IMG/VR virus record: IMGVR_UViG_3300031801_001562 | Reading direction: 5' to 3' (one strand) | DNA length: 64,000 nucleotides | Source of the DNA: a virus | Taxonomy: Duplodnaviria; Caudoviricetes | In this document: in pieces, positions 9,335-64,000 of the stretch | How the letters are laid out: every line of letters begins with the position of its first letter | Position numbering within the stretch: position 1 is the stretch's first letter | Program-made: the position numbers and the translations under genes | The notes under the pieces: generated by a model | What the model was told of the DNA's origin: nothing | Databases searched by the model: none | What the model saw: the letters and a program-made list of their open reading frames with translations, nothing else

Positions 9335-9343
9335 TGTATTTAT
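9335..9343 (-). promoter_or_regulatory. T4-type late promoter (ATAAATACA)
   Basis: CATAAATACA overlapping the stop of the upstream gene, about 30 nt before the ATG at 9306. Confidence 0.65.
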
Positions 9344-47934: not shown

Positions 47935-48388
47935 AATCCCCATCATATTTGTGAAGTGTTTCTGCCTTAGCTATAACTAAATGAGCAAACCGAGTATTAG
48001 GTTTCACTGTAGTTTCACCACCAATATTATACAAAGTCGCTCCTGCATAATCTTTAAATCCTGAATCATATATTGAACTAATAATTAAAACTCCGTTCCT
48101 ATTAAAAGTACTCCTACCGAGAAGAATTGCAATTTCACCTTCTGCTATATCTACATGTTGATTAGACTGAATTTCATAACATGCACCATGATCTAAAACA
48201 TAATTACCATCTTCATCAACCTTTTGTTCTATTGATTTTCTAGGTTCTTTTTTATCTTCATCCATATGCATCGGCCCGGCACCAATCCGATAAACCTTAT
48301 CGATTCGTAAATCAATAGTATTAGGTTGAATCATTTTTTTATCAATATTAGTTACTTCAGTAGAAGCATTCACAGGATGTATAAACAT
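47918..48388 (-). CDS. Trimeric dUTPase / dCTP deaminase family protein
   Basis: IQPNTIDLRI, GRSTFNRNG, IYDSGF, TRFAHL motifs. Confidence 0.8.
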   Translation of the reverse strand: MFIHPVNASTEVTNIDKKMIQPNTIDLRIDKVYRIGAGPMHMDEDKKEPRKSIEQKVDEDGNYVLDHGACYEIQSNQHVDIAEGEIAILLGRSTFNRNGVLIISSIYDSGFKDYAGATLYNIGGETTVKPNTRFAHLVIAKAETLHKYDGDYGEKD

Positions 48389-48999
48389 TATTCTCCGAAA
48401 TAATAAGGGTTTTCTTTTGTTTTAAATATAAACCCTTGTTCTAGAACATCTGAATTATAATCTAATTTCCAATAAACATTAGGATCTACAGCAGATGCTT
48501 CAGGAAATATAGTTGAAGAAAAAGTAGAATCAGATTTAAATAAAGGACTAATTTCATTACGAAAAACATATATTTGATTTTCATGATATAGCATGCAAGC
48601 AAAAGTTCCATCTACTTCATTTAGATCTTCATTTAATGCTTGATCAAATAACCATTCCGTATCCCAATCACCTTCAAATTTTCCTTCTTTAATAATACCA
48701 TTATGCCACAAAAATGATTTATCTTTTTTAGCTGGATGGATAAATCTACCTGTTGCCAAATCAGTATTATTAACTTCTTTTGATGTTGGTGCTTGTTGAT
48801 GTACTACACAATAATCCCAATTTCCATCTAATAAATCTAAATCTAAAGGCCCGTAAGATTTTGTTTGAGATTTAAGGTCTAGACCATCATCAGTATACAA
48901 AAACTGAGAAACTGAATGAGATTCTTCTCCCCGATATCTATTTAGGTCAACTAATTTTAGTAATTGCTTTTTATCTTTACTTGCAGAAATACTACACAT
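48388..48999 (-). CDS. Class II (Ntn) glutamine amidotransferase, Gat partner of QueC
   Basis: N-terminal Cys (MCS), VHQQAPT, HP, LWHNGII, DTE, GTFAC, RNEISPL. Confidence 0.85.
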   Translation of the reverse strand: MCSISASKDKKQLLKLVDLNRYRGEESHSVSQFLYTDDGLDLKSQTKSYGPLDLDLLDGNWDYCVVHQQAPTSKEVNNTDLATGRFIHPAKKDKSFLWHNGIIKEGKFEGDWDTEWLFDQALNEDLNEVDGTFACMLYHENQIYVFRNEISPLFKSDSTFSSTIFPEASAVDPNVYWKLDYNSDVLEQGFIFKTKENPYYFGE

Positions 49000-49738
49000 T
49001 CCAGTTTATCTCCTTTTGATATTGTATAGGATCCGGTACTCCTATATTCATAAATGCTTTAATTCGTTCACTACATGAAGGACATGTGCCACAGCTTTTT
49101 CCTTCTACATCGGGATCATAACAAGTTAAAGTATGTTTTAATAAATCAAAATTCCCTAATTCTTTACAAATCTTAAGTTCTTCTGTTTTACTTAATTGAG
49201 AAAAAGGTGCCACAATTTTGGTTTTAAATGTTCTATTTAAGGCTGCCACATTATTAAGAGCATCTACAAAAGCTTGACTAGTATCCCAATAACCATACTC
49301 ATCATGAACCTGTAATCCACAAAAAATAAATTCTGCTTTTACTACCTCTGCAAAAGCACAGGCATTACTTAATAACATCATATTTCTAAATGGAACATAT
49401 GTTACGGGTTGAGGATCTCCTAACACTTCTTTAATGTCAGGCATATCAATATCAGTACCAGATATATTTGCACTAATAGGTTGAACTAGTTCTCCAAAAT
49501 AACCAATATCTAATTGTTTATGTGCTACGCCTAATTCTTGACATAATTCTTTAGCTTTATTACATTCTTCAGCTTGTTTTTGTCCATAATTAAAAGTTAA
49601 TGCAAATACTTTTTCTGGACCATATTGATTAACAAGCATCATTGTAACAATGGAACTATCCATTCCTCCAGATAAAATTACTGCAACATTATCAAAATAA
49701 AATGGAAGTTTTTTTCTCGCTTCTTCTAAATCTGACAT
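48992..49738 (-). CDS. queC: 7-cyano-7-deazaguanine (preQ0) synthase
   Basis: ILSGGMDS PP-loop, FNYGQKQ, TYVPFRN, YWDT, Zn site TCY...CGTCPSC.ER; start moved to MSDLEE at 49738. Confidence 0.95.
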   Translation of the reverse strand: MSDLEEARKKLPFYFDNVAVILSGGMDSSIVTMMLVNQYGPEKVFALTFNYGQKQAEECNKAKELCQELGVAHKQLDIGYFGELVQPISANISGTDIDMPDIKEVLGDPQPVTYVPFRNMMLLSNACAFAEVVKAEFIFCGLQVHDEYGYWDTSQAFVDALNNVAALNRTFKTKIVAPFSQLSKTEELKICKELGNFDLLKHTLTCYDPDVEGKSCGTCPSCSERIKAFMNIGVPDPIQYQKEINWNV

Positions 49739-49971
49739 TAACTTTTCTCTACAACTTCTATCAATCGCGATAGATACCATTTAGCTTTATTTAAATCTTC
49801 AAGCTGTTTTTCTTTATTTTCATAACCCTTTTCCGTTTTCCTACCAGCTCGTAATATATACTTAACAATATTACCACGATGAAAATTTAAATCAAACGCT
49901 TCTATAACATCAATTGCTTCTAAGTTAGTATTACTTTGATAATGTTCGGGGTCTATTTTATTGGTAACCAT
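49738..49971 (-). CDS. DUF3310 (SaV-like) protein
   Basis: IDPEHY, EAIDVIE, F..GN.VKY..RAG.K, EDL.KA.WYL. Confidence 0.85.
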   Translation of the reverse strand: MVTNKIDPEHYQSNTNLEAIDVIEAFDLNFHRGNIVKYILRAGRKTEKGYENKEKQLEDLNKAKWYLSRLIEVVEKS

Positions 49972-50818
49972 ATTTATTCCTATCTATCCAATCAGGATAT
50001 TTCCGTTCCGGCCATTCTCCTGTTACTATTTCCCTAAATTTATCTACATTTTTATATAATAAATTAAAATCTATTTCTTCAGGTTGTAAATTATAAACAG
50101 AATCAAAAGAAGATTTTGGTTTATTTAATCTACCCATATTTCCATATATATCCCCATCTAATGCTGCCATAACTGGATTAGATGTATCCACACTATAAAT
50201 CCAATTATAATCTCTATAATGAGAAAATTCTCTTGCCTGCCAAGTTCCTAATAAATGATGCTTGAGATTTAGATCTATAATCTCTTCTTCAACCATCCTT
50301 TTAAGCAATTTAATTCTTTCATTCGCTTGTGTTGTCGGTTCTTTATCTGCCCAAGAATATACAAAAGGAATTCCGATAATATCAAAATGTTTTACCTGCC
50401 CCCCAAACTCTAAACCAAAATCTCTGAATTGTTTATAACAATCTATGAGCTCATCTTGTGTTGCACCTTGAGCAACAGGCATACCTTGACTAATAGTATC
50501 TGGATAACTATTTACAAATTCCATAGTTCTTTGTAAAGTTGTTTCTTTATTTCCTAGAACATCTGGCAATATAACATATTCCGGTTCTATTCGTTGATAC
50601 CATTCATATAACAATTCATTATCTAATGATTCCCCCAATTCAAAACAACTATTATCCAAATATATTATTTCCCCATGATCGGAAAATTCTAATGCTAGGT
50701 TTGCATATTCTTTATCTTCTAAAATTTTATGCAACAAAACGAACATATAATCACTTATAAAATCTTGATGTTCGTCTATTATAGAGAAAGGAATTTCGTG
50801 AGAAATTTTTACATTCAT
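49958..50818 (-). CDS. TGT-fold DNA base-exchange enzyme candidate (DpdA-like)
   Basis: YLDNSCFE, LPDVLG, MPVAQG, IGIP, HHLLG, SVDTSNP pattern; lies between folE and queC. Confidence 0.65.
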   Translation of the reverse strand: MNVKISHEIPFSIIDEHQDFISDYMFVLLHKILEDKEYANLALEFSDHGEIIYLDNSCFELGESLDNELLYEWYQRIEPEYVILPDVLGNKETTLQRTMEFVNSYPDTISQGMPVAQGATQDELIDCYKQFRDFGLEFGGQVKHFDIIGIPFVYSWADKEPTTQANERIKLLKRMVEEEIIDLNLKHHLLGTWQAREFSHYRDYNWIYSVDTSNPVMAALDGDIYGNMGRLNKPKSSFDSVYNLQPEEIDFNLLYKNVDKFREIVTGEWPERKYPDWIDRNKYGYQ

Positions 50819-50824
50819 ATAAGT

Positions 50825-51508
50825 TTAACTCATTAAAGATCTACACCCAGCTAAAAACTCTCTACGACATTCACCGTCTTCGAATTGTCCCGATGCTGAA
50901 AGTGTGGCTGTTGAAGATCGAAGATCTTGTATGCCTCGAGATTTAACACAAAAATGTAGTCCATCAATTTGAACAGCTACGTCTTCTGTTTTAGCAACAA
51001 ATGCAATTGTTGCGCGCACTTGTTCTGTTAATCTTTCTTGAACTTGAGGTCTTTTGGAAAAGAATTGAACTATTCGATTTAATTTTGAAAGTCCTAAAAC
51101 ATAATCATTAGGAATATATGCTACAGATGCTACTCCATCAATAACAATAAAATGATGTTCACAATATGATTGAACATTTATATTTCTTTCAAGAACAAAA
51201 GAACCCCTATAATTCATTGAATTTTTAATTTGTGTACATTTTGGAAATCTGTCATAATCTAAACCCCAAAAAATTTCATTAACATACATTTGAGCAACTC
51301 TTTCTGGAGTATCTCGTAAAGAATCATCTTTAAGATCTAAACCTAATTCAAACATAATATTTTTAACATTGTTTTGAATCTTTTCAATAGCTTCTTCAGA
51401 ATTAAATTCATCTCGAACTCGTGACATGGGTGTTTCTAATCCTAAAGAAAGTAAATGCTCATTCACTTTTCGACCCAACTCTGGATCGCATTTTCTACGT
51501 ACTTCCAT
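50825..51508 (-). CDS. folE: GTP cyclohydrolase I
   Basis: DDSLRDTPERVAQMY, SYCEHHF, GLSKLNRIV.FFSKRPQVQERLT, HFCVKSRG. Confidence 0.97.
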   Translation of the reverse strand: MEVRRKCDPELGRKVNEHLLSLGLETPMSRVRDEFNSEEAIEKIQNNVKNIMFELGLDLKDDSLRDTPERVAQMYVNEIFWGLDYDRFPKCTQIKNSMNYRGSFVLERNINVQSYCEHHFIVIDGVASVAYIPNDYVLGLSKLNRIVQFFSKRPQVQERLTEQVRATIAFVAKTEDVAVQIDGLHFCVKSRGIQDLRSSTATLSASGQFEDGECRREFLAGCRSLMS

Positions 51509-51535
51509 TTTCTCCTTTGTTTAATTTATTATTAT

Positions 51536-51564
51536 ATTATATAACATTATAGGCACAATGTCAA
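51536..51564 (-). promoter_or_regulatory. Consensus sigma70 promoter for the folE-queC operon (TTGACA-N17-TATAAT)
   Basis: -35 at 51559-51564, -10 at 51536-51541, exact consensus; AGGAG SD before folE. Confidence 0.88.
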
Positions 51565-52348: not shown

Positions 52349-52537
52349 TTTGTGGCTGACCGTGCTTCTGTTCCCAAGTGACGGCCACAACTCGGCTATA
52401 GTCTACGCAGCGAGTGCGTAAGAGTATGCAGTATAATCGTCATTGTTTGCGATTAGTTTGATGGACCGTTACGGTGGTGCCTCTACCGAATACCTCTATA
52501 TCTACCTTCACAATCAATCGAAATCTATTTCAGCCCC
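52349..52537 (-). ncRNA. ssrA: Two-piece tmRNA, coding piece (5' acceptor strand plus tag reading frame)
   Basis: Starts GGGGCTGAAATAGATTTCGA at 52537; tag frame 52450-52403 = ANNDDYTAYSYALAA-stop; 3' TTGTGGC/GCCACAA pairing; 3' boundary approximate. Confidence 0.92.
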
Positions 52538-52538
52538 A

Positions 52539-52631
52539 TCAACGAAAGTCATATCCAATAAAAAGTGTGGCATAAGTTAAACCCAATGCAAGTATTATAA
52601 TTATTGCTAACCACATTAATTTCTTTTCCAT
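52539..52631 (-). CDS. 30-aa transmembrane peptide inside the tmRNA intervening sequence (MEKKLMWLAIIIILALGLTYATLFIGYDFR)
   Basis: ATG 52631, TGA 52539-52541, one base before tmRNA G1; purine-rich AAGAAAG upstream; clear TM profile. Confidence 0.6.
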   Translation of the reverse strand: MEKKLMWLAIIIILALGLTYATLFIGYDFR

Positions 52632-52640
52632 AACTTTCTT

Positions 52641-52700
52641 TGGTGGAGCTGATCGGAATCGCACCGATGTCTTAACTGTTATCTAGATATGTCAACAGTA
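52641..52700 (-). ncRNA. ssrA: Two-piece tmRNA, acceptor piece (T-arm and CCA end)
   Basis: ATCGG-TGCGATT-CCGAT T-arm, then CAGCTCC-A-CCA ending at 52641; pairs with GGGGCTG including G3.U; ATATCTA/TAGATAT and ACAGTTAA/TTGATTGT P2 pairing; 5' boundary approximate. Confidence 0.92.
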
Positions 52701-53351
52701 TCATCTGTATTTATTAACCCATGGAACTCTCACAGAAATATCCCTTTTTTCAGATATTCCGGTTGATTGGCCCTTATTAAAAAGAACTATAGGATAATCC
52801 AATTCTTCGTAATTAGAAAAATGTGCTGAATAATAAAAATTATCTGGTATACGAATAGGGTCTAATCTTTTCATCCAAAGATAAGTATCAAAGCCACCAT
52901 ATTTTTCTATATCTTCAAATTCAAATCTTTCCCAAATTTTTAAACTCGTATCTGGTCTCCATCCTAATATTGAAGAATTATATGGAGTACATAATATATC
53001 CCTATTTCTTTGATCTTCGAAATCATCCATATGTTCTCTCCAACGAGCCCATGGCGCACATAAATAATCTTGTTTTTCTACCCAATCAAATAAACTATCT
53101 ATATTACCTTTTATTACAACATCTAAATCAAATGCTAAAACAACATCTTCTGTAAACTGTTCTATTATTGGTGAATGATATAAAACTTTGGTCCACCATT
53201 TAGGAAGAATCGGTTCATCAAATACACGAAAATTTATATTATAAGTAGTATTTTTAAATACCATTTTTTCTAAACGTTGTATATCTTTTATAGTGTATTT
53301 GTCTCCTACACATATGCAGGCAACAGCTCTTCGCATAAAATTCATCGCCAT
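52701..53351 (-). CDS. Glycosyltransferase-like protein (GT-A, DxD)
   Basis: VGDKY...RL..MV, WWTKV, LAFDLDVVIKGNID, NSSILGW. Confidence 0.7.
   Translation of the reverse strand: MAMNFMRRAVACICVGDKYTIKDIQRLEKMVFKNTTYNINFRVFDEPILPKWWTKVLYHSPIIEQFTEDVVLAFDLDVVIKGNIDSLFDWVEKQDYLCAPWARWREHMDDFEDQRNRDILCTPYNSSILGWRPDTSLKIWERFEFEDIEKYGGFDTYLWMKRLDPIRIPDNFYYSAHFSNYEELDYPIVLFNKGQSTGISEKRDISVRVPWVNKYR
52706..52714 (-). promoter_or_regulatory. T4-type late promoter (ATAAATACA) just upstream of tmRNA
   Basis: Same 9-mer as at 6424 and 9335. Confidence 0.65.
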
Positions 53352-54034
53352 TGGCCTATAACCATAAATCGTTTATAATTACCAAAATCTTTTTCTCCTT
53401 TATACCATATATTTTTTATTTGATTTTTTTCAGTTAATTCTTCAACATCCTTTACACAATTTATATGATCCGTTAAATCAATATAATCATTAGATTGTAA
53501 ACAAACAAAAGGATTTCCTTTAAAAGAAAATTGATTTGTAAAATCTTGCATGTGCTCACAAGATGTACAGATAATTAAATGTCTTCTTCTAAGTTCTTTT
53601 CTTTCGAAATAATCATCATGTTGAATTACTTTATATTTTGGATTAAAAATATTTTTATATTGAGCCATTACTTTTTGACAAACTTCGTCTGGATCATATA
53701 AATCAATTTGAGTTATTCTTCCTTTAGTGAACCTGTCAATTAATTCTATCAGGGGCCAACCAAACCAAGATCCAATTATTTCTATTAGAAGAGGATAATC
53801 CCAATCCGGATTACCATCAGGAAATCTAATACTTTCAGAAGAATCTTTTGAATATTTTTTAATATTATCAGGAGTAGTTATTCTTAAATCATTTAAAATA
53901 TCACACATCCATTTTTTAGATTCATATTGATCATCAGATATAGAATCATCAAAACTTTTTTCATATTCAGAATGATTATTTTTTATAAATTTCTGAACAG
54001 TATAATATGGTGAATTTCTAAAATTTTCTACCAT
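53342..54034 (-). CDS. SAM-dependent methyltransferase-like protein (paralog 1)
   Basis: QYESK.W, IEIIGSWFG, IDLYDPD, IICTSCEHM, LQSNDY, RFMVIG; Rossmann-like pattern. Confidence 0.6.
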   Translation of the reverse strand: MVENFRNSPYYTVQKFIKNNHSEYEKSFDDSISDDQYESKKWMCDILNDLRITTPDNIKKYSKDSSESIRFPDGNPDWDYPLLIEIIGSWFGWPLIELIDRFTKGRITQIDLYDPDEVCQKVMAQYKNIFNPKYKVIQHDDYFERKELRRRHLIICTSCEHMQDFTNQFSFKGNPFVCLQSNDYIDLTDHINCVKDVEELTEKNQIKNIWYKGEKDFGNYKRFMVIGQWR

Positions 54035-54888
54035 CTACCTACCACCATAAAACGCTTATAATAACCAAAGTCTTTTTCTCCTTTATACATAATATCTGAG
54101 ATTCCATTTTTCTCTGCTAATTCATTTGCACTCTCAACACAATTTTCATGTTCTGGTAAATCTATATAATCATTACTTTGTAAAACATAAATTGGTTTGG
54201 GAGTATCTTTATAATATTCTTTCATCTCGCCAATATCAGGCATATGTTCACATGAAGTACAAATTATCATGTGTCTGATTCTTTTATCATTTCTTTCAAA
54301 GTAATCACCAAATTGATTTATATTATAAGACGGTTCAAAATGATACTTATATTTTTGAACTACTTCTTGACATACTTCATCTGGGTCGTATAAATCAATT
54401 TGTTCAATCTGGACAATAGTATCTTCTAACATTTCTATTAATGGCCATCCAAACCATGCTCCAACAATTTCAATTTTAAAAGAATCCTTGCTCCCGAAAA
54501 GTTCAGGTTTTAAAATTTGACACATCCATCTTTTAGATTCATATTGCCCATCAGTAATAGAATCTAAAAGGTTTGAAGCATATTCTGGATAAGATTCATC
54601 TAAGAATCTTTTAACTTTCATATATGGAGACCATTCCATAGTATTATTATAATTTACTTCATCTTTTTCAAATTGCCCCAAAGTTCTTTCCCATTCACCT
54701 TTAGTTCTTTCCCATTCAATCGCATTCCGGCGTTTTTCGGTTGCACGTCTTGCATCTTCCTTGTCCCATTGTCCTGAAGTTTTTTCCCATAAACCTTCAC
54801 AACGTTGCCATTCAATATTAGCTGCGCGTCTATCTCTTTGGAGAATTTTTAAATCAATTTCCGCTTTTTTAAAATCTTTTATGAACAT
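54028..54888 (-). CDS. SAM-dependent methyltransferase-like protein (paralog 2) with N-terminal Trp-heptad extension
   Basis: Same blocks as 53342..54034 (QYESKRWMC, IEIVGAWFGWPLIE, IDLYDPDEVCQ, ICTSCEHM, LQSNDYIDL). Confidence 0.6.
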   Translation of the reverse strand: MFIKDFKKAEIDLKILQRDRRAANIEWQRCEGLWEKTSGQWDKEDARRATEKRRNAIEWERTKGEWERTLGQFEKDEVNYNNTMEWSPYMKVKRFLDESYPEYASNLLDSITDGQYESKRWMCQILKPELFGSKDSFKIEIVGAWFGWPLIEMLEDTIVQIEQIDLYDPDEVCQEVVQKYKYHFEPSYNINQFGDYFERNDKRIRHMIICTSCEHMPDIGEMKEYYKDTPKPIYVLQSNDYIDLPEHENCVESANELAEKNGISDIMYKGEKDFGYYKRFMVVGRW

Positions 54889-55493
54889 CCTACCACTATT
54901 GAATATTTAACTTTTTGAAAATCATATTCTTCTTCAAATAAAACATCATTCAAATTATTCTGCTCTATTAATTGTTGGGTTGACATCACGGGATTGCATG
55001 AATATAAACGTTGTCTATTATTCCCGGCTAAAATGAATTTTCCCTTATGTACTTTACCGATAGGATATGTATCTTCACAAAATTTGTGAATAATGGGCCC
55101 CTTAAATTTTATATCATCGAATATAACATCTGTGCAATAAATGTTATCACTTATGAGTTCACAATCTTCACATACATAAGGATCTGAATCATAATATGAT
55201 ATATTATAACCTAATTTTTCTATTTTATCAACATGATAATTCATATACCAAGAACAGACGATATTCAAATCATCTTCATCAAAAAATTGAGTAATTAAAG
55301 AATGAATCTTATCATTTAAAACAATATTATATCGATTATTGGCTGAACCTAAATTATGTCGTCTATTTTCCAGTGTACTATACCACAAAGTATCGTATGC
55401 ATTTTCCGTTCCATATTTTGAAATAGAAGCAGCGAACTTTTCAAATTCTATCATAACTGCTCCACATGTCAAGAGCCCAACCTTTTGCTTCAT
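54879..55493 (-). CDS. Divergent member of the same methyltransferase-like family
   Basis: IVCSWY, ISYYDSDP, C-terminal N.V.....L...N....V.F...........VVG parallels the two paralogs. Confidence 0.45.
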   Translation of the reverse strand: MKQKVGLLTCGAVMIEFEKFAASISKYGTENAYDTLWYSTLENRRHNLGSANNRYNIVLNDKIHSLITQFFDEDDLNIVCSWYMNYHVDKIEKLGYNISYYDSDPYVCEDCELISDNIYCTDVIFDDIKFKGPIIHKFCEDTYPIGKVHKGKFILAGNNRQRLYSCNPVMSTQQLIEQNNLNDVLFEEEYDFQKVKYSIVVGCS

Positions 55494-56196
55494 GCAACTC
55501 TACATGAGTTTCATTAGGTTTCGCCCATTTTTTATGAGAAGTATTAAAAAGACATATCTTATAATCAGATCTATATTCTGTTGGATTTAAATCATCTGAA
55601 TATTTACAACCTATATTATAATTATATACATTTCCTGGTAACCAAAAATCTAAATTATTTTTTCTATGTTCCTGATAAAACAAATATTTGTCATATGAGG
55701 GATATGTAAAGAAAGCCTTTTCCTTATTTCTAACTAGCCTCTCATACATATCAAATCCAACATCGTCCTGCCAGGAAACAAAAGAAGAATTAATCGGAGT
55801 CGTCATATATCCATAATTAATTTTTGCCGCTTCATTGTTTCTCCAATAATTCCAAATATAAGTTACCTTATTCTTTTTTCTGTCTACTAGATCGGTTATA
55901 TTATTTTGAATTAAGATATCTAAATCAAACCAAGCCTTAGATCCGGAGACATGTTTATATCTATCGAAATAACACATCTTTTCGGATGTAAATATTTGTG
56001 TTCTTGGAAATTCGGAAAAATCATCTGGTATACTTTCTATTTTTATATCTGGATCTATACCAGTTGAATTATCAGTAAGACATGTAAAATTAAAAGGATT
56101 ATTATAATGTTTTTTAAGACTCTTGAAAAGCCTATTAACATATAATCTATTATACTTGGTTCCCCATTTCAAACAATAAAAATTTGTCATTTCCAT
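55441..56196 (-). CDS. Glycosyltransferase-like protein (GT-A, DxD)
   Basis: CLKWGTKY...YVNRL, FTCLTD, WFDLDILIQNNI, NSSFVSW. Confidence 0.72.
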   Translation of the reverse strand: MEMTNFYCLKWGTKYNRLYVNRLFKSLKKHYNNPFNFTCLTDNSTGIDPDIKIESIPDDFSEFPRTQIFTSEKMCYFDRYKHVSGSKAWFDLDILIQNNITDLVDRKKNKVTYIWNYWRNNEAAKINYGYMTTPINSSFVSWQDDVGFDMYERLVRNKEKAFFTYPSYDKYLFYQEHRKNNLDFWLPGNVYNYNIGCKYSDDLNPTEYRSDYKICLFNTSHKKWAKPNETHVELHEAKGWALDMWSSYDRI

Positions 56197-57227
56197 TGAT
56201 CTCTAAAAGCATCAAAACCTGATCCACACTTCTCAGCACATACTGTAGATTTACCATCTGCGCAAGAAGATATATTCCAACTTTTTTGTAATTTTTTAAA
56301 GAATCCACCTTCAATAATATTTCGAAGAGGTGTATGAAGTGCATTAATATCTTTTAAATCATCGAAATATGACCATATCTGATTTTCACCTATTTCTTGA
56401 TAAGCTTTATAAAATCTACCTGCTGTCCAACAACAGGGAGTTACTAAACCTTCAGCACTTATATATATTTCATTATTATCTAATGACTTACATGTGATTT
56501 TTGTTTGATCTAAATACTTTTGAAAGGAACCATGACTCTTAATCAATTTATCATAGCTGTTAACGCTCTTATTCTGATTTTCTGGATTAGTTGGTGGCTT
56601 AATCTCATTCCCCTTAGTGGTTATCTTTTTATCAACTTTCTTACCTTTATAGCTTTGTACCCACCTACCAGTTTTTTTTCTTACAAATTCGAGTCCGAAT
56701 AATTTAGCCATTCTTTCCGCTTCTTCGACTTGATGTTCATTATGTTCAAAAATTAAATATACCCAAATACCCTTACCGCCGGCTTGAGTAAATACATCCA
56801 TGGCATGTTCTACCTTTTTCCAATTTACATTAACTCGATATAAATGATTTGTATCTTCTAAGCCATCTACACTAAAAGTAACCTTTCCTCTAGATCCTAA
56901 TATTAAAACTAATTCTTTCCACCAATCATCATCTCTAGCTCCAGCATTTGTAGTCATATGAAGATACATTTTAGGATTATTAACTCTAAGATATCTAAAA
57001 ATGGAAAGCGTATCATTAGACACAAGTGGATCTCCATGATTACCACACATCAATAAAGAATTTAATTGATGAACAAAATCTATATCAACCATGCTCATGA
57101 AATTATTCAAAGATAATTCAGCATTTTTCATATGTCGATTATTTGTCCTGTCACACATCGGGCATTGTGCTTGACATCTTTGTGTTGGTTCTAAATGAAT
57201 ATGTTTTATTTGATCCGAAATATACAT
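56187..57227 (-). CDS. Radical SAM protein with C-terminal SPASM/twitch-like domain
   Basis: CQAQCPMC, MCGNHGDP, TNAG, FSVDGLEDTN..YR, C-terminal C..YISAEG.VTPCCW...C...CG. Confidence 0.92.
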   Translation of the reverse strand: MYISDQIKHIHLEPTQRCQAQCPMCDRTNNRHMKNAELSLNNFMSMVDIDFVHQLNSLLMCGNHGDPLVSNDTLSIFRYLRVNNPKMYLHMTTNAGARDDDWWKELVLILGSRGKVTFSVDGLEDTNHLYRVNVNWKKVEHAMDVFTQAGGKGIWVYLIFEHNEHQVEEAERMAKLFGLEFVRKKTGRWVQSYKGKKVDKKITTKGNEIKPPTNPENQNKSVNSYDKLIKSHGSFQKYLDQTKITCKSLDNNEIYISAEGLVTPCCWTAGRFYKAYQEIGENQIWSYFDDLKDINALHTPLRNIIEGGFFKKLQKSWNISSCADGKSTVCAEKCGSGFDAFRDQWK

Positions 57228-58346
57228 TTAATAAAAACTTTCAAACTCTGGCCACTCATTAAGTAAATTAGTTTTATTTCTTTTATCACATAATTTAAGA
57301 AAATTCATTCCTTCTATAAAAATATTATTATCAACCGGAATATTTAATTTTAATAAATTTTTTATATCATCAGAAATATATCTTTGATTTTTGCCTTGAT
57401 ATAATTTTTTCACTCCGTTTGGCAAACAATCTATTGTAAAATAACCGGGAACAACTAATAAATTTGATAATGGTGATAATATATTAAAATTCTCTTTTAA
57501 ATAAATTTGTATCTCATCTAAGTAACCAACATTTAATGTTTGAACCGTAACTTCAAATCCTATAGGATATGTTGATTGTAATTTTTTAATATTCTCGATC
57601 TTTTTTTTCCAAACAGTTCCGGTTCTAATATATTCTTCTTTTTTATCAATCCCATCTATAGAAATATTAAAATATAATTTTTTAAATGCTTTTTTATATT
57701 GAAATAAATGTCCGGGAATTTTTGTGGCGTTAGTAAGAGTAGATATTTTTATTTTTTTTGAAAATCCATGACCGATAAGCCACTCTAAAAAATCATAATA
57801 TCCATCAGTCATTAACGGTTCGCCGCCCGAAATAATTATTCTTGTTACAGAAGGTAAAATCTCTTTTAAATCTTCATAAGTTTTTTTATTAAAAGTATTT
57901 TCATATATTGGCCATTCTCCTTCATTATATTTCTCCTTATGTTGCGACCAGGCGGACGAAGATTGTGGACCGCACATCAAACATTTGAGATTACATAAAT
58001 TTCCAAATTTAATTTTAAAGGTTGGGTTATTGGGAATTAATTTTTTGCCTTGTTTAAATTTTTCTACTTGTCCCGCATAATCATTCTTTAAACTTTCTTT
58101 TCTTCTGGAATTCAATCCGAGATCTTCTCGTTTCCAACAGGATTGACAAATATCTAATCTTTTATTTTCTAAAAAAGCTTTTCTTTTATCGTTGATATAA
58201 TCAGAATTAAAATATTCTAAAATAGAATACTTATCACTGAACATTTTAGATTCACCTAGATTATCACAGCATAATTGATATTCATTGAATGAAGAAACAG
58301 TAAATTGTGTAAAAGGGAGAGCGCAGAAATTTTTTAATTTTTCCAT
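57228..58346 (-). CDS. Radical SAM protein with N-terminal twitch-like domain
   Basis: FCALPF..CCD..CQSCW N-terminus; GNLCNLKCLMC; SGGEPL; TNAT; SIDG. Confidence 0.92.
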   Translation of the reverse strand: MEKLKNFCALPFTQFTVSSFNEYQLCCDNLGESKMFSDKYSILEYFNSDYINDKRKAFLENKRLDICQSCWKREDLGLNSRRKESLKNDYAGQVEKFKQGKKLIPNNPTFKIKFGNLCNLKCLMCGPQSSSAWSQHKEKYNEGEWPIYENTFNKKTYEDLKEILPSVTRIIISGGEPLMTDGYYDFLEWLIGHGFSKKIKISTLTNATKIPGHLFQYKKAFKKLYFNISIDGIDKKEEYIRTGTVWKKKIENIKKLQSTYPIGFEVTVQTLNVGYLDEIQIYLKENFNILSPLSNLLVVPGYFTIDCLPNGVKKLYQGKNQRYISDDIKNLLKLNIPVDNNIFIEGMNFLKLCDKRNKTNLLNEWPEFESFY

Positions 58347-59374
58347 AGAGGAAATTTATTTTCAGGTTTTCTTTTTGGAATTTTACTATCTGCAGAACTT
58401 ACACAATTATCAGTTATACAAGGCATGAGCTTATCAAATAATTTAAATCCGGTTTCAATATTTCCTAGAGGTACATCTGAGCAAGAATATGACCGCTTAA
58501 TGCTCCCACAAGGCTCGCGTATAATAATACTACGATACCCCGACGAACAGATCCAGCCTTTGAATTCATTAAAATTAAACGCATTAAATCTCTCAGCTTG
58601 ATCCACTTCATATATATTTCCTTTTGAATCTACTAAATCTATTTCACGTTCTGTTGGTCTGGAATCATTATGTAAAATATCTAACTGTCCTTGTGTATAT
58701 CCATCTACAACTTTTGTAGCTGTCGGATTTGATTGTGGTTTTAGTGTTGTGTGTATACCACGATCTTTAAAATATAAAACATGTTCTGTTAGTTCCCAAA
58801 ATCTTTCTGGAATCATCACCATATTAATTGTTATTCTAATTCCATTATCTTGAAGAAAAACTAACTTATCAGCAAAATCTGCTATCTTATCTTGTGTATT
58901 TAAAGCTTCAAAATGTGCGGAAGCAGTAATAGAAGCCTTATCAAATTTATTCGCGTATTTAATATATGTTTCAAACCATTTTATTTTACGAGAACAATTT
59001 GAAGTCATATGTATGCGCTGACGATTACAATTATCTTCATCATCTGCTAGGTGTTGTAGTATATCCAAATAGCCGGGATGAAAGGTCGGCTCTCCTCCGG
59101 ATAAAGACCAATTGAAAGAATTAAATCCTTGTTTTCTTGCTTGTTTTTTTATGCTATCAATTGTCTTAATACAAAGTTCAGTTGGTCTATGATCTTTTTT
59201 ATCTGATCTAGCATACGGCCAACAATAGGAACATTTGTAATTACAAAATCTACCTAACAACCAAGATATTGTAAACGTATCTCGATACAACATTGTTTTA
59301 GTACCGAGAGCTTCAATATCCTTCCATGGTATTTTTGTAAAATCTTCTTCATTGCGTCGCATGAACAAAATCAA
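58334..59374 (-). CDS. Radical SAM protein with C-terminal Cys-rich auxiliary domain
   Basis: WLLGRFCNYKCSYC, SGGEPTFHP, TSN; C-terminal FKGWIC...SC...PC...C..SAD..IPK. Confidence 0.92.
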   Translation of the reverse strand: MILFMRRNEEDFTKIPWKDIEALGTKTMLYRDTFTISWLLGRFCNYKCSYCWPYARSDKKDHRPTELCIKTIDSIKKQARKQGFNSFNWSLSGGEPTFHPGYLDILQHLADDEDNCNRQRIHMTSNCSRKIKWFETYIKYANKFDKASITASAHFEALNTQDKIADFADKLVFLQDNGIRITINMVMIPERFWELTEHVLYFKDRGIHTTLKPQSNPTATKVVDGYTQGQLDILHNDSRPTEREIDLVDSKGNIYEVDQAERFNAFNFNEFKGWICSSGYRSIIIREPCGSIKRSYSCSDVPLGNIETGFKLFDKLMPCITDNCVSSADSKIPKRKPENKFPLWKN

Positions 59375-60260
59375 ATTGTTTAGGTGTATAATTCATTAAA
59401 TTCATTTCATTATCCATATCCCATAAAGGGGCTGTCAATGTGTGAACATTTTCAAATTTTCCTTTAAATCTTGCATACACCTTTGTTATTAATTCTTCAT
59501 ACTTTGGCAAATACATAATTTTAATTTTACAAGGTAAATTTACTTCTTCACAAAATCGTTCTAATTTATTAATATACCTATCATTAATAAATTCTGGATG
59601 TATTGAAAAATTTATTAATGAAAGTTTATTTAATTCTTTTAAATAGGATACTTGCTTGGTGCCGTTAGTTAAAGTCCAAATTGTCGCTTCGGGTACTTTT
59701 TCTTTTAACCATTTTACAAAATCTATATAATGAGGAATAAGAGTTGGTTCTCCTCCTGAAATAGTTATTTTTTTAACATTTAAGGGATTAACTTTGGTCC
59801 AGGCTTCTTGCATTCTCTCCAAGGAAGTCCAGGAGCCTTTATAATCATGGCTACGAGGGTCACAATAAGTGCAGCTGAAATTACACCTACGATCAGTATA
59901 ATAATCAACGGCAACACCAACATCACTCGTAACAGCGTAAATTTTATCATGGGGTTCCAACTTTCCTTTTAGTCTCATATTGTCTATCATTAATAAATGA
60001 TCTTCAGTCCGACCTTTTGGCATCGCTATATCAGTACCACAAAAACAATTTTCATTAGGACATACTATTGTTTTAGGTTCTGTATATTCATCTATTGAAA
60101 CTGGATAAGGTGTCCTACATACCGCAGTGCCTACCTCCCACCATGCAGCATCAATAATATAATTCGTTTGTTTACAATGCCATCCTTTAAAATTAGTTCT
60201 ATTTTTAATAGTTTGATCATCACAAGATTTTAAACCATGGTCGGTTAAAACTTTAAGCAT
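59349..60260 (-). CDS. Radical SAM protein with N-terminal Cys-rich auxiliary domain
   Basis: N-terminal FKGWHC...VC...VCP..NCFCGTD..MPK; RRCNFSCTYC; SGGEPTL; LTNGT. Confidence 0.92.
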   Translation of the reverse strand: MLKVLTDHGLKSCDDQTIKNRTNFKGWHCKQTNYIIDAAWWEVGTAVCRTPYPVSIDEYTEPKTIVCPNENCFCGTDIAMPKGRTEDHLLMIDNMRLKGKLEPHDKIYAVTSDVGVAVDYYTDRRCNFSCTYCDPRSHDYKGSWTSLERMQEAWTKVNPLNVKKITISGGEPTLIPHYIDFVKWLKEKVPEATIWTLTNGTKQVSYLKELNKLSLINFSIHPEFINDRYINKLERFCEEVNLPCKIKIMYLPKYEELITKVYARFKGKFENVHTLTAPLWDMDNEMNLMNYTPKQFDFVHATQ

Positions 60261-61267
60261 TTAGAGACCTCGTAATATATTTCTTCACATTTATTTGGAA
60301 GATAATCCCTTTTATTCATCCAGTTAATTAATTTAATGCAATAATTTTTATCGAATACATTTGTCTTTAAGAAATTTATTATTTCTTTCTGTAAAAAATT
60401 ATTATTATTATTTATTATAATATCTTTTACGCTAGAAGGTAAATAAGATGCGTTTAACCATTCTGGTGCATCTAAAAAATCATATGATATAGTATTATTG
60501 GTTATCCCTTTTGATTCTATCCACTTAATCGTATCAGTTAAGTCTGTGCTATTAAGGGTATGAAAGACGTAATGAGGTATTACGAAAAAATACTTTAATT
60601 GTTTATCAAAATTTCTTTCAAATCGAGACCATTTAGTTCCATATCTAACGAATTCCGCTACATCACCAATTCCGTCAATACTAACATTATAATTCAAACT
60701 CTTGAATCTGGTAAGATATTCTCTCCATTTTTCATTTGGGAAAATAGAATTATTTGTAACAATCATTAAATTAATATTTTCAATTTTAAGAGTATTAAAC
60801 AATTCTAAATACAGTGGATCCATAAATGGCTCACCACCAAGAATTTTTAAATCTTCTAACTCACTTAAATCTAAATCTGGTAATGAATTTTTATGTAATT
60901 TTCCACCAATTGCCGAACTGAATTTGGAATTACAACCCATGCATTTAAAATTACATAAATTGGAAGCGGAAAATTCTAATTCCTTTATTTTTGGATTTTG
61001 AATATATTTTTTATCATATTTGCTATTGAAATTTTTGCGATAACTAGGTTTGCCTATTTCGTCATCTCTGTAACATTTTTCGCAACCCTCAATCCATTCA
61101 TCTTTAAGCATTTTTGATCTAAGGTCTATATTTTCAGGACCATTAAATGCCTGAAATAGACTATCATATTTTGGATAAATTCTTTTATCAAAAATGCAAC
61201 ATGGATTTATTTCTCCAGACGGATTCAATTGTATATGAGTAAAGGGCGCCATGCAAAAATGTTTCAT
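60245..61267 (-). CDS. Radical SAM protein with N-terminal twitch-like domain
   Basis: FCMAPF..GEINPCC..GCEKCY; SNLCNFKCMGC; LGGEPF; VTNNS; SIDG. Confidence 0.92.
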   Translation of the reverse strand: MKHFCMAPFTHIQLNPSGEINPCCIFDKRIYPKYDSLFQAFNGPENIDLRSKMLKDEWIEGCEKCYRDDEIGKPSYRKNFNSKYDKKYIQNPKIKELEFSASNLCNFKCMGCNSKFSSAIGGKLHKNSLPDLDLSELEDLKILGGEPFMDPLYLELFNTLKIENINLMIVTNNSIFPNEKWREYLTRFKSLNYNVSIDGIGDVAEFVRYGTKWSRFERNFDKQLKYFFVIPHYVFHTLNSTDLTDTIKWIESKGITNNTISYDFLDAPEWLNASYLPSSVKDIIINNNNNFLQKEIINFLKTNVFDKNYCIKLINWMNKRDYLPNKCEEIYYEVSKCLKF

Positions 61268-62667
61268 TTTACGCGGACCAATTCATTATGTTCATCTATT
61301 TGATAATTTTGAAAATAGTCATTGAAATTTTGATTCCATATCATATCGGATTTTTTTCTATAAATTAAAAATCTATTATATTCATGGTATCGGGGTTTAA
61401 AGCTTTTAATATATTTAACTATGCGATGTAGTTTTTCCAGAGTCTGTTCATGCTTTACCCAATACATGTGTCCGGTTTTTTCGGAAACTCTGTCTATAGG
61501 TTTATCAAAATATGATTTAATTAGTTCCTCTGTTTTTTCTATATCTTTCATTGTTTCTTTTTCAAAATCTAATAATATCAATGAAGGGTCTAAATATTTT
61601 GGGGACTGCACTATGGATATATTCACAGATGCTTGCAAACTTATAAAAGATTCAAATACATCATAAATGTCCAGCATTTGATATATTGATGTTGTACATG
61701 TAATATCCAACCAGGTATAATCATTATATTCTCTAAATTTTTTAATATTTTTTTCTAATTGATCCCATGTTCCACCATTCCTAAAATAAGAATAAAATGT
61801 CCTGCCGGCATCAACCGATATTGTAATGGTAGAGGTATTAAATGGTAATAATAATTCAGATAATTTAACAACATCAAAATCAGAATTAAAATTAGAATGG
61901 AAACTAAGATGTATATTAGAAGCATTAGGGTGATCAGCTAACTTTTTTAATACTGGAAGAAATTGTTTTTGATATAAAAGTTCTCCACCTGCAAAATTAA
62001 TATGTTCCAGATAAGGAAAATTTTCATTCAAATCATCGACTATTTGCAAAGCTTGCTGGACAGTCAGAGACATTTCATAATCATCATTATCATCATGCCT
62101 ATGCTCGGTTCCTAATAGTTGTTTTAAATCGTATAGGTGTGTTTCTTCATCTGGTATAAAATTTTGAAGCTTCTTTGACCACCCGGAAGAAAATACTTTA
62201 GAACAATGTATACAAGCGAAATTGCAAGCATTACTAAATCTAAGTTCTATATGCCTTAACCCTTCATTTCTCACATAATGAGTTTTTGGATCATAACATT
62301 TTATTAAAAGATGTTCATCCGGACAATGTTCTTTATGAAATTTTTCATAAAATTGAACAGTATATATGTTAGCGTCTTTGGGAGGTTTTCCCTGATCCTT
62401 ATAAAAACTGCCATTCTTTTCTAAAGTAAAATCCTGTCTCATAGAAGGGACACCAACCGCTTCCATTGATTCGCAAGTATCACACCCTTTAGGCCATTCA
62501 TCATTGTGAAGTTTTCTTCTCAACTCTTTAAAATTTTCATGATTATAAATTTCCGAAGGTAAAAAAGTATCTTTTTGGAAAACTAATTGATCTGCCTGCC
62601 TTGGACAACAAGAAACAGTTCCGTTTTTATAATTTATTCCACCCATTGCATAAAAACATTGTTTCAT
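61264..62667 (-). CDS. Radical SAM protein with N-terminal twitch-like domain
   Basis: QCFY..SCCP..GCDTC; SNACNFACIHC; AGGE; SVDAG. Confidence 0.9.
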   Translation of the reverse strand: MKQCFYAMGGINYKNGTVSCCPRQADQLVFQKDTFLPSEIYNHENFKELRRKLHNDEWPKGCDTCESMEAVGVPSMRQDFTLEKNGSFYKDQGKPPKDANIYTVQFYEKFHKEHCPDEHLLIKCYDPKTHYVRNEGLRHIELRFSNACNFACIHCSKVFSSGWSKKLQNFIPDEETHLYDLKQLLGTEHRHDDNDDYEMSLTVQQALQIVDDLNENFPYLEHINFAGGELLYQKQFLPVLKKLADHPNASNIHLSFHSNFNSDFDVVKLSELLLPFNTSTITISVDAGRTFYSYFRNGGTWDQLEKNIKKFREYNDYTWLDITCTTSIYQMLDIYDVFESFISLQASVNISIVQSPKYLDPSLILLDFEKETMKDIEKTEELIKSYFDKPIDRVSEKTGHMYWVKHEQTLEKLHRIVKYIKSFKPRYHEYNRFLIYRKKSDMIWNQNFNDYFQNYQIDEHNELVRVK

Positions 62668-62668
62668 A

Positions 62669-63595
62669 TCATATCTCCTTATCTATAAAAATATCTCTTT
62701 TTTTAACTTTACAAGTATCCCAACATTTTTCTACTGGTGAGGGCCACGACCAAGATTTTTGTATAAGATCAAACATTTCACCATCAATAACTTCTGATAT
62801 AGTATTATATTTTAAATTGTTTGCTAAAATTCCTCCGGAGCCAGTCCAAATTTTTCCAAATTTAGTTTTTCCTTTTCTGGTAGCGGCTATTTCCAAAGCC
62901 TCGGAATTTAAATAACAACAAGGTAGCAATGCTCCGGTATGATTTATAAATAATCTTTTTTGATTACCATATTTACATTGAATTTCTTTTTCTTCTTCCA
63001 CTTCTTTTTTTACCTCTCCACTTCCTCCTCTATGAGAAAATATTGCTCTGAATCTTTTAAACCCTTCCTCTTCCGACATTCTTTCTGCATCATCAAATAA
63101 GTGCTCGTTATGGTCAAACACAATAAACTGCCAAGTTGCATTGCCTCCTGCTCCTATAAAGGCTCTCCAATTTTCTTGCACTTTTTTAAAATTAGAACCG
63201 ATTCGATATTTTACTAATGATTCCTGATCTGTTCCATCTAATCCAAAAAATACTGAGGTCCCTAGTTCACCCAACTCCTTCCAAAATTCTTTTGTTTTGG
63301 TAGACCCATTAGATGCAATATTAACATCTGTAAAAGATTTAAAATGTCTTACAATTTTTAATATATCTGGATGAAGGGTGGGCTCATCTACGGAACCACA
63401 AAAATTTAATAATTTAAGATTAGGAAATTCTTTAGAGGTAATCCATCTTTTAAGATCTTCAAAATCAATAATATTTTTATTTAAAATAGATTCAACTTGC
63501 TCTTTCTTTTCTTGCCTAAGACAACCGGGGCATGCTATATTACAAAAGCTAGTTAATTCTACATCAATCCATTCAATTGTTTTATTATTCCACAT
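62669..63595 (-). CDS. Radical SAM protein with C-terminal SPASM/twitch-like domain
   Basis: ELTSFCNIACPGC, FCGSVDEP, SNG, FGLDGTD..YRIG, C-terminal C..LFINHTG.LLPCCY..C..TC. Confidence 0.92.
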   Translation of the reverse strand: MWNNKTIEWIDVELTSFCNIACPGCLRQEKKEQVESILNKNIIDFEDLKRWITSKEFPNLKLLNFCGSVDEPTLHPDILKIVRHFKSFTDVNIASNGSTKTKEFWKELGELGTSVFFGLDGTDQESLVKYRIGSNFKKVQENWRAFIGAGGNATWQFIVFDHNEHLFDDAERMSEEEGFKRFRAIFSHRGGSGEVKKEVEEEKEIQCKYGNQKRLFINHTGALLPCCYLNSEALEIAATRKGKTKFGKIWTGSGGILANNLKYNTISEVIDGEMFDLIQKSWSWPSPVEKCWDTCKVKKRDIFIDKEI

Positions 63596-63998
63596 TTTTT
63601 ATAACCGCTCGCTTTCCATCATCACCGCAAGTAAGATAACATCTGGGGATATGAAGAGGGTGCATATTATTCCAACTTTCTTTTAATGTTGTTTTATACC
63701 ATTCGCTTTCTAAAATTTCTTCTATAGAATGTTTTTTTAAATTATTAAAATTATGACCTATATTAGTAAATAAATTTTCTATATCTTTAGTTTTATTAGC
63801 AACTTGCTCATCATACAAATGACAACACGGCCATAATCTTCTATTTACTCCAATAAATATTTCACCTTTTATTTTATGACGACAAGCGATTCTGGCTTCT
63901 TCATAATTTTTTTCTCTAGCTCTTTTTTCAACATCCTCATATGTTTCAGAATCTATTTCCTTTGCCACTCTCGATTTTATTTTAGCAAATTTAGAATT
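63585..63998 (-). CDS. C-terminal SPASM/twitch-like part of a further radical SAM gene, truncated by the window edge
   Basis: Frame stays open from 63968 to the window end (NSKFAKIKSRVAKE...); C..K.EIFI....LWPCCH...RC..TCG as in 56187 and 62669. Confidence 0.75.
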   Translation of the reverse strand, partial: NSKFAKIKSRVAKEIDSETYEDVEKRAREKNYEEARIACRHKIKGEIFIGVNRRLWPCCHLYDEQVANKTKDIENLFTNIGHNFNNLKKHSIEEILESEWYKTTLKESWNNMHPLHIPRCYLTCGDDGKRAVIKNVE

Positions 63999-64000
63999 AT

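Follow-up and report, generated by a model that had tools for sequence, protein, structure and literature searches.

We analysed a 64,000-nt stretch of viral DNA (IMG/VR record IMGVR_UViG_3300031801_001562), hereafter the window, in which an array of radical S-adenosylmethionine (SAM) enzyme genes occupies the minus strand from position 64000 to 52701. According to the open reading frame (ORF) listing, this 11.3-kb array comprises 13 co-directional ORFs: seven complete radical SAM (rSAM) genes with the CX3CX2C motif and the 3′ end of an eighth, followed by a glycosyltransferase (GT) gene, three methyltransferase (MT)-like genes and a second GT gene (Table 1). All 12 junctions are tight, neighbouring genes overlapping by 4-53 nt except at one junction where they abut and one where 1 nt separates them, which leaves no intergenic space. 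A first-pass annotation of this DNA had described at least eight rSAM, two GT-like and three MT-like overlapping genes on one strand, and is borne out in every particular; its count of seven complete CxxxCxxC enzymes and a truncated eighth holds as well, the motif occurring once per protein in the seven and g63585 being cut by the window edge. Within the array, no promoter or terminator signal exceeds shuffled expectation and the T4 late-promoter motif TATAAATA is absent from the coding strand; TATAAATA is no more frequent in this AT-rich DNA than expected by chance, and is retained here as a lead only. None of the 13 proteins contains a transmembrane segment.

The window has a GC content of ~30-33% and encodes homologues of gp32 and gp59, the former 53% identical to its cyanomyovirus counterparts; judged by these genes, it is DNA of a marine T4-like myovirus. 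No match came from a megablast search of 50,697 phage records with the entire stretch, and tblastn with g57228 recovered just 22-25% matches, the hits being single rSAM genes in KVP40-like vibriophages and in RsoM2USA, which together indicate that there is no cultured close relative.

Table 1. Features of the window, with the array genes listed in their order along the minus strand
Feature	Position	Strand	Description and evidence
rSAM gene 1 (g63585), 3′ part	63585..64000	-	C-terminal twitch/SPASM-type Cys domain; PF13186 23.6 bits; edge-cut
rSAM gene 2 (g62669), 308 aa	62669..63595	-	N-terminal CX3CX2C, C-terminal one-cluster twitch-type domain; PF04055 47.9 bits; conserved core
rSAM gene 3 (g61264), 467 aa	61264..62667	-	N-terminal twitch; NF033640 209.8 bits; conserved core
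rSAM gene 4 (g60245), 340 aa	60245..61267	-	N-terminal twitch; NF033640 217.3 bits; variable presence
rSAM gene 5 (g59349), 303 aa	59349..60260	-	N-terminal 6-Cys domain, short Fer4_12-type core; PF04055 51.3 bits, PF13353 38.5 bits
rSAM gene 6 (g58334), 346 aa	58334..59374	-	C-terminal Cys domain; PF04055 54.7 bits; conserved core
rSAM gene 7 (g57228), 372 aa	57228..58346	-	N-terminal twitch; NF033640 275.8 bits, full length; conserved core
rSAM gene 8 (g56187), 346 aa	56187..57227	-	C-terminal twitch-type domain; PF04055 32.9 bits; conserved core
GT 1 (g55441), 251 aa	55441..56196	-	Putative soluble GT8-like retaining GT-A; model pLDDT 92, Foldseek, DxD
MT-like 1 (g54879), 204 aa	54879..55493	-	Divergent MT-family homologue; hhalign against MT family A3, probability 96%, E 5e-9
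MT-like 2 (g54028), 286 aa	54028..54888	-	Class I SAM-methyltransferase-like; 49% identity to g53342
MT-like 3 (g53342), 230 aa	53342..54034	-	Class I SAM-methyltransferase-like; model pLDDT 92; top Foldseek matches all SAM methyltransferases
GT 2 (g52701), 216 aa	52701..53351	-	Putative GT8-like GT-A, last array gene; hhalign against GT family A2, probability 100%; DLD motif kept
tmRNA gene	52357-52758	-	Circularly permuted; RF04321 110.6 bits, RF01849 (alpha_tmRNA) 61.8 bits (cut-off 50)
sigma70 promoter of folE operon	51564-51536	-	TTGACA-17-TATAAT, 12/12 matches
folE operon	47918-51564	-	folE, dpdA-like, small ORF, queC, Ntn-type amidotransferase, dcd
Two repeat-protein genes	9340-12482	-	Paralogous proteins of 585 and 467 aa

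By motif and profile, the seven complete array proteins are members of the Radical SAM superfamily. The CX3CX2C motif occurs once each in g62669, g61264, g60245, g59349, g58334, g57228 and g56187 and is invariant in their orthologs, and six of the seven exceed the gathering cut-off of the Radical_SAM profile (PF04055, 29.5 bits); g60245 scores 27.8 bits, yet reaches 217 bits with NF033640. The latter model is the NCBIfam entry 'twitch domain-containing radical SAM protein' (N_Twi_rSAM subfamily; cut-off 170 bits), to which no function is assigned. Its cut-off is passed by g57228, g60245 and g61264, which share with its members an N-terminal C...C(C)...CxxC domain preceding the CX3CX2C core, and missed by g58334 (43.5 bits), g56187 (37.0), g59349 (29.7) and g62669 (24.9). 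The other five array enzymes differ from the subfamily in bearing the extra domain C-terminally or in another form, and g62669, g56187 and g63585 have a similar C...CC...CxxxC domain at the C-terminus.

Each rSAM has four or five conserved auxiliary cysteines, at least four of them invariant in orthologs down to 37-70% identity. The SPASM domain is defined by a motif of seven cysteines accommodating two auxiliary [4Fe-4S] clusters; four to five cysteines are enough for one extra cluster, which makes these domains twitch-type rather than full SPASM. The SPASM profile PF13186 (cut-off 21.5 bits) is accordingly reached by g63585 alone, with g62669 at 20.1 and g60245 at 21.3 bits. The extra Cys-rich domains that the first-pass annotation had ascribed to all of the enzymes are thus genuine, and are of the one-cluster twitch type and not full SPASM.

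Examined gene by gene, the rSAMs show strong retention of their cysteines. The edge-cut g63585 has a 332-aa ortholog in the closest relative (L001:3764-4762), 98.5% identical over the common part and matching both the Radical_SAM and SPASM profiles. In g62669, a paralogue of g56187, nine of nine cysteines are invariant in five orthologs down to 59% identity; g61264 has invariant C4, C21, C62 and C65 together with the triad C148/152/155, and g57228 preserves C8, C26, C67, C70 and its triad in 30 homologues. In contigs L012 and L015, g56187 is found at 69-70% identity and g58334 at 64%; the ten cysteines of g56187 are all invariant, and g58334 also has homologues at 41-62% identity in bacterial metagenome-assembled genome (MAG) loci. 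Locus L002 lacks g60245 and carries a duplicate of the g61264 type, while g59349 is lineage-specific, being missing from L012 and L015, with 11 of 11 cysteines invariant in three orthologs. Identity among the rSAM paralogues of the array is only 22-31%, which indicates that the duplications are old and the functions distinct.

No array rSAM could be placed in a family of known function. Equivalog models (MoaA, QueE, viperin, NirJ, PqqE, sactipeptide and ranthipeptide maturases, anSME and others) all score far below their cut-offs: MoaA models give 20-45 bits against cut-offs of 231-325, viperin models (NF038283, at least 180 bits; TIGR04278, at least 450) a best score of 42 bits, with g59349, and QueE models, for which g59349 is again the best candidate, 30.7 against 260 (TIGR03963), 26.7 against 206 (TIGR03365) and 22.5 against 300 (TIGR04349). 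A phmmer search of PDB with four rSAM types matched no solved structure beyond the generic core, the viperin matches covering ~90 core residues. Membership in known single-function families, which would have spoken for enzymes acting separately, is therefore not observed, the equivalog scores being far too low and no solved structure being close. In joining an rSAM core to a single auxiliary [4Fe-4S] domain, with no peptide-recognition element and in a biosynthetic-cluster context, the array enzymes resemble BtrN (2-deoxy-scyllo-inosamine dehydrogenase) and MoaA, twitch-type small-molecule enzymes reportedly covered by Grell, Goldman and Drennan in 2015; they differ in that three have the domain N-terminally and in giving no significant match beyond the generic core.

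A CX3CX2C core with a Cys-rich auxiliary domain and weak SPASM Pfam matches is also found in the maturases of RiPPs (peptides that are made by the ribosome and then modified post-translationally), such as PqqE, CteB, PapB and anSME-type enzymes. The array differs from these in lacking a RiPP recognition element (RRE) or PqqD domain, in lacking a precursor gene, and in having four to five auxiliary cysteines against seven. Searches for a PqqD-type domain in the array proteins (Pfam, E ≤ 0.01) gave no match and, with no intergenic space either, no precursor ORF is evident, in agreement with what had been noted at first. Judged by its genes, the array does not present the combination of PqqD/RRE domain and neighbouring precursor gene that marks a RiPP-maturase locus. 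Small ORFs in G002 (a complete relative described below), L012 and L015 were tried as precursors and rejected, as they have no repeat or Cys-rich core and look more like lipoproteins, a lone twitch domain and helical proteins; two small ORFs ahead of the array of the Bdellovibrionales locus L074 were likewise discarded, since they resemble IS3-type transposase fragments.

For the five non-rSAM genes, Pfam and PHROGs yielded a single weak match, to a glycosyltransferase PHROG, and predicted folds were needed to place them. The model of g55441 was built from an alignment of 49 homologues, in all of which D91xD93 is invariant. Its Foldseek matches are retaining GT-A enzymes of GT8/GT6 (probability 1.0, TM-score ~0.6, identity 12-17%), including the LARGE1 xylosyltransferase domain, LgtC, alpha-1,3-galactosyltransferase (alpha3GalT), glycogenin, galactinol synthase and RfaJ; g52701 is its paralogue. 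On the basis of the modelled fold we regard both as putative GT8-like retaining GT-A glycosyltransferases, which resemble GT8 enzymes (LgtC, RfaJ/WaaJ, glycogenin, galactinol synthase, LARGE domain) in predicted GT-A fold and invariant DxD. Despite this fold and motif, neither matches Pfam Glyco_transf_8 (PF01501). The family has so far been found almost only in viruses, which may serve as a lead.

The three MT-like genes originally noted do form one family, g53342 having a class I fold with g54028 homologous to it, with the reservation that the third member, g54879, is possibly catalytically dead. The g53342 family has 697 representatives at E ≤ 1e-3, a few of which match the Methyltransf_25 or Spermine_synth Pfams; across 60 homologues G88, G92 and D116 hardly vary, and they are also present in g54028, which carries a charged N-terminal extension of ~85 aa and is conserved in L012 and L015. 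Both proteins are predicted class I SAM-dependent methyltransferases. In g54879, the Gly-rich motif-I loop GxWFGxP is changed to CSWYMNY and SCEH to FCED; with this altered SAM-loop motif the protein may be unable to bind SAM and may be non-catalytic. It is nevertheless under purifying selection, with a dN/dS of 0.17-0.20; a protein atlas search with it gave no usable match.

The array is conserved and under purifying selection. Nine IMG/VR loci carry it in the same order with intact frames, the syntenic genes being 64-98% identical at the amino acid level, and in comparisons with up to three relatives each of the 12 complete genes has a dN/dS between 0.05 and 0.26; these values and the intact frames in the nine loci dispose of the possibility, raised in the first-pass annotation, that many of the genes are decayed. 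At greater distance, the core order 62669-61264-58334-57228-56187-GT-MTlike-MT-GT is repeated at 31-70% identity in phage-like contigs L012/L013 (Tara; NCBI marine metagenome) and L015, which have other extra genes, other flanks and no folE or queC. An order kept at such identity amid differing flanks fits co-working genes better than independent enzymes, and this co-inheritance of the core is our main argument for joint function, as a genomic inference and not a demonstration. Within a single genome pair, synonymous divergence changes several-fold from one array gene to another (dS against L004 is 0.22 for g62669 and 1.3 for g57228 and g56187), and this unevenness between neighbouring genes suggests recombination break-points inside the cassette. 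In L012:9100-10020, and also in L013 and L014, a Peptidase_S58 (DmpA-type) gene lies among the rSAM genes; it is absent from the window array.

Comparison with relatives G001-G004 places the array in a larger setting. The 11-kb unit delimited at first is a real array, and it constitutes the 3′ end of an island of ~41 kb that holds 16-18 rSAM genes in relatives. In G001 and G002 (the latter of 167 kb, CheckV 100%), one strand has 18 Radical_SAM matches at ~55-91 kb, and the closest relative, G003, has the same gene order directly upstream of the window edge. The G002 island opens at 54.1 kb with an NDP-sugar-type SDR epimerase/dehydratase gene, one TATAAATA lying ~75 nt before this first gene. 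Its further genes encode three oxygenases (two PhyH, one TauD), an AKR, a nitroreductase, an aminotransferase-like protein, a B12-binding rSAM and an FkbM methyltransferase, together with two homologues of Trp halogenases and an AMP-binding fragment. About 4 kb upstream, beyond rnh and three other genes, there is a module of GT1, GHMP kinase, SIS and pyruvyl-transferase genes. Neither an A-type Fe-S carrier (PF01521) nor a PNP_UDP_1 nucleosidase was found in G001 or G002.

The G002 island has two further features. Adjacent ORFs of 77 and 73 aa at 69963-70410 (L011:9963-10410), each with a signal peptide and a lipobox-like Cys, lie mid-island, are absent from the window and are immediately preceded by a late-promoter-like TATAAATA motif. 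At 77706-78065 (L011:17706-18065), a free-standing 119-aa twitch/SPASM-like Cys domain is encoded between rSAM genes; it could be a split auxiliary domain.

Cellular relatives of the N-terminal twitch (N-twitch) rSAMs were sought by profile in prokaryote contigs represented by one genome per species, giving 261 confirmed places, from which 77 cellular loci (L022-L098) were kept. Bdellovibrionota account for 53 of the 77, some on complete chromosomes, and many of these loci hold tandem arrays of 3-10 N-twitch paralogues (e.g. L074, L070, L043 and L067), some accompanied by rSAMs of the g58334 type (41-62% identity) and the g56187 type (30-46%). The flanks of the cellular loci give no functional clue: L074 is surrounded by GGDEF-FHA, PhoH-PIN and asparagine-synthase-like genes and insertion sequence (IS) fragments, and L041, from a Gammaproteobacteria MAG, by an MT family member, a 2OG oxygenase and a PNP_UDP_1 nucleosidase, the last of which, being lacking from G001 and G002, is not a general feature. 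Our literature search on the function of N-twitch rSAMs or on Bdellovibrio rSAM arrays found nothing relevant.

Taking these results together, we propose that the array is a cytoplasmic cassette of co-operating tailoring enzymes for a radical-tailored, glycosylated and methylated product, and give this reading a probability of roughly 0.45. The 11.3-kb stretch would be the downstream end of one long transcription unit and a self-contained, co-inherited cassette. Its five core rSAMs and lineage-specific extras, each with a single auxiliary [4Fe-4S] domain of the twitch type and devoid of a peptide-recognition domain, would perform radical C-H chemistry (oxidation, epimerisation, dehydration, C-C or C-X bond formation) in the cytoplasm of the host, acting on a substrate that is small or sugar-like. 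The two soluble GT8-like retaining GTs would then attach sugars from host NDP-sugars, and two active SAM methyltransferases would methylate the product, with the third, degenerate paralogue (g54879) perhaps serving as a scaffold. The outcome would be a methylated, radical-tailored glycoconjugate produced during infection, for which a soluble metabolite, an envelope precursor at the cytoplasmic face and a virion protein are candidate acceptors. In this scheme we infer a single shared pathway, its class of substrate and the order of its steps, beyond the gene content, folds, motifs, selection, synteny and distribution that are observed. Counted in favour of the co-operating cassette are the coupling and conserved order of the genes, dN/dS, the invariant cysteines, the GT and MT folds, the lack of peptide recognition, the sugar-type genes of the island, the upstream GT1/GHMP/SIS/pyruvyl-transferase module, the absence of transmembrane segments and the glycan reading already published. 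The multi-step tailoring pathway originally suggested for this DNA is thus partly supported, by an order conserved across lineages, and has its modified-base option weakened.

Several observations weigh against this proposal. The whole island encodes no flippase, polymerase or initiating-transferase-type membrane proteins, and genes for nucleotide-sugar synthesis are missing from the cassette itself. The Trp-halogenase homologues, AMP-binding fragment and nitroreductase upstream suggest secondary-metabolite chemistry more readily than a plain glycan. As none of the rSAMs lies near any characterised enzyme, it is assumed that their chemistry is directed at sugars; enzymes with GT8-like folds also act on proteins (glycogenin) and cyclitols (galactinol synthase); and the Bdellovibrionota N-twitch arrays occur without the GT family. 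The lack of membrane assembly proteins and of nucleotide-sugar genes in the cassette, with the secondary-metabolite flavour upstream, is evidence against a classical envelope-glycan pathway in particular.

The Bdellovibrionota arrays, with their 3-10 tandem paralogues and no GT family, would be read as largely independent paralogues, and the same could apply to the phage enzymes, each working by itself against variants of a target in host or prey, or in an arms race, through duplication and turnover and with no linear pathway. Gene turnover speaks for this, as seen in the lack of g60245 and the duplication of the g61264 type in L002, the lack of g59349 in L012 and L015 and the extra rSAMs of other arrays, as does the several-fold dS variation, with the recombination of cassette pieces that it suggests. 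We nevertheless hold it to be unlikely, given five rSAM types and a GT/MT quartet that keep their order across lineages, the tight translational coupling, and within-array paralogues divergent enough to be old and functionally distinct. SPASM/twitch rSAMs very often act on peptides, and the GT8-like fold includes glycogenin, UGGT and xyloside xylosyltransferase; the rSAMs might accordingly cross-link, epimerise or in some other way modify a virion or other phage protein, which the GTs and MTs would decorate, in a RiPP-like manner without a dedicated precursor. Virion glycosylation in the cytoplasm, which is known in mycobacteriophages and chloroviruses, would suit soluble GTs and MTs, and a Peptidase_S58 gene is present in L012-type arrays. 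Potential substrates are the two repeat proteins of the window (Table 1), which have long C-terminal runs of four-residue repeats with Tyr or Phe at every fourth position (Y-S-G-Q / Y-T-G-I; overall Y/F-x-G-x-Y-S-type), the runs flanking a Gly/Ser/Pro-rich turn. The co-occurrence with Tyr-repeat proteins that had been put forward as a check gives a divided answer: both proteins are also present in the island-bearing G001 and G002, but their genes are 42-46 kb distant from the array, and Phage C48C1 (Kyanoviridae), in which a distant homologue sits inside a giant protein, has one rSAM gene only. Considering further that none of the eight rSAMs has an RRE/PqqD domain and that no candidate substrate gene lies in or beside the cassette in three lineages, modification of a phage protein appears to us improbable.

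The region downstream of the array bears on a further alternative. Directly after g52701 lies a circularly permuted tmRNA gene (Table 1), which ARAGORN did not call; it is of the alphaproteobacterial type, a hint that the host may be an alphaproteobacterium such as SAR11. It is followed by a staphylococcal-type nuclease gene and by the folE operon, whose perfect sigma70 promoter is given in Table 1. Together with this operon, which lies 1.2 kb downstream of it in this lineage and is of the 7-deazaguanine type, the cassette could elaborate a 7-deazaguanine or another base, or could place a sugar on phage DNA and tailor it. rSAM enzymes take part in thymidine hypermodification (PMC8989533) and phage GT-A enzymes place glycans on 5hmC (bioRxiv 10.1101/2023.12.21.572611); a weak QueC-like ORF occurs amid the upstream rSAMs of the closest relative (18.2 bits, under the cut-off), and the weak best functional matches of g59349 are QueE, MoaA and viperin models (22-45 bits). 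Much stands against such a role. The folE operon has its own promoter and is separated from the array by the tmRNA and nuclease genes, with ~2.7 kb of extra DNA between array and nuclease gene in L004-L009; the cassettes of L012 and L015 lack a folE, queC or dpdA-like flank; and the GTs resemble GT8/GT6 rather than JGT/TarP-like or T4-type DNA glycosyltransferases. G002 has no QueD/PTPS and no ThyA-like hydroxymethylase, and its best QueE match (TIGR03365, 27.4 bits) is below cut-off, so that the QueD/PTPS and QueE steps would need to be supplied by the host. A Tet_JBP search left G002 unmatched, but control genomes likewise, and is hence uninformative. With a separate promoter, intervening genes and homologous cassettes devoid of folE, queC and dpdA, the array does not appear to be part of a Dpd-type 7-deazaguanine cluster, and the hypermodified-base synthesis entertained in the first-pass annotation loses ground to the point where we consider it very improbable.

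Marine T4-like phages with many rSAM genes are already known, their function unexplained (PMC5332604, PMC7029224). In Nishimura et al. (2017), a T4-like environmental viral genome of 183 kb, TARA_ERS488813_N000010, is listed with 12 rSAM genes (PMC5332604), and Zaragoza-Solas et al. (2020) noted that hypervariable islands of pelagimyophages contain radical SAM cassettes adjoining GT8 and LPS genes, proposing modification of the host O-chain (PMC7029224). In both papers the genes are counted or mentioned only, the enzymes being neither analysed nor tested for function. By description, those phages resemble the present one in being marine and T4-like, with low GC, many rSAMs in a variable island and GT8-type neighbours, and the permuted alphaproteobacterial tmRNA of the window fits a similar host range. 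They differ in that G002 lacks both CsgG, a pelagimyophage marker, and the A-type Fe-S carrier reported by Nishimura et al., and in that the island adjoins replication genes here, whereas the described pelagimyophage island lies between VrlC and gp14. Lacking CsgG, G002 is not assigned to the described pelagimyophage groups. New here is the finding that Bdellovibrionota, too, carry the N-twitch rSAM family, in tandem arrays.

These arrays admit a bolder and rather doubtful extension, in which the cassette and the ~41-kb island would encode a phage natural-product-like pathway, yielding a radical-tailored, glycosylated and methylated metabolite during infection of an abundant marine bacterium, with core chemistry, performed by N-twitch rSAM arrays and the rSAMs of the g58334 and g56187 types, common to phage and predatory Bdellovibrionota. 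The inventory behind it comprises the 16-18 rSAMs, the B12-rSAM, two flavin halogenase homologues, PhyH/TauD, FkbM, AKR, nitroreductase and aminotransferase. If it were true, viruses and bacterial predators would have in common an undescribed 'predation chemistry' against Gram-negative cells. Radical SAM enzymes are costly, oxygen-sensitive catalysts, and about one quarter of the 167-kb genome of G002 is a single island with 18 radical SAM matches; that purifying selection retains such enzymes in the oxic surface waters of the sea implies a strong selective advantage. Identifying the product would define new radical chemistry, would explain a recurrent and abundant feature of marine T4-like phages noted in 2017 and 2020, and would perhaps link phage infection with Bdellovibrio-type predation through a common enzyme toolkit. 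The conserved nine-gene core offers a defined and tractable target for heterologous reconstitution.

Besides the possible source samples, at least four studies have near-identical DNA in their metagenomes of seawater and marine plankton, and an independent run gives a 5.5-kb contig with eight differences. Two oligo-dT marine RNA libraries of one study contain short contigs over g62669 and g56187, with 1-2 differences per ~200 bases; being strandless and open to DNA carry-over, these are a mere hint of transcription and are not counted as expression, and parts of the array without such contigs carry no weight either way. The phage array also occurs at 74-96% identity in contigs L020 (JABSQC010000110.1) and L021 (PBYV01000081.1), filed in public MAGs labelled Mycoplasmataceae and Acidimicrobiaceae, which are most likely phage DNA mis-binned into those MAGs rather than evidence of hosts.

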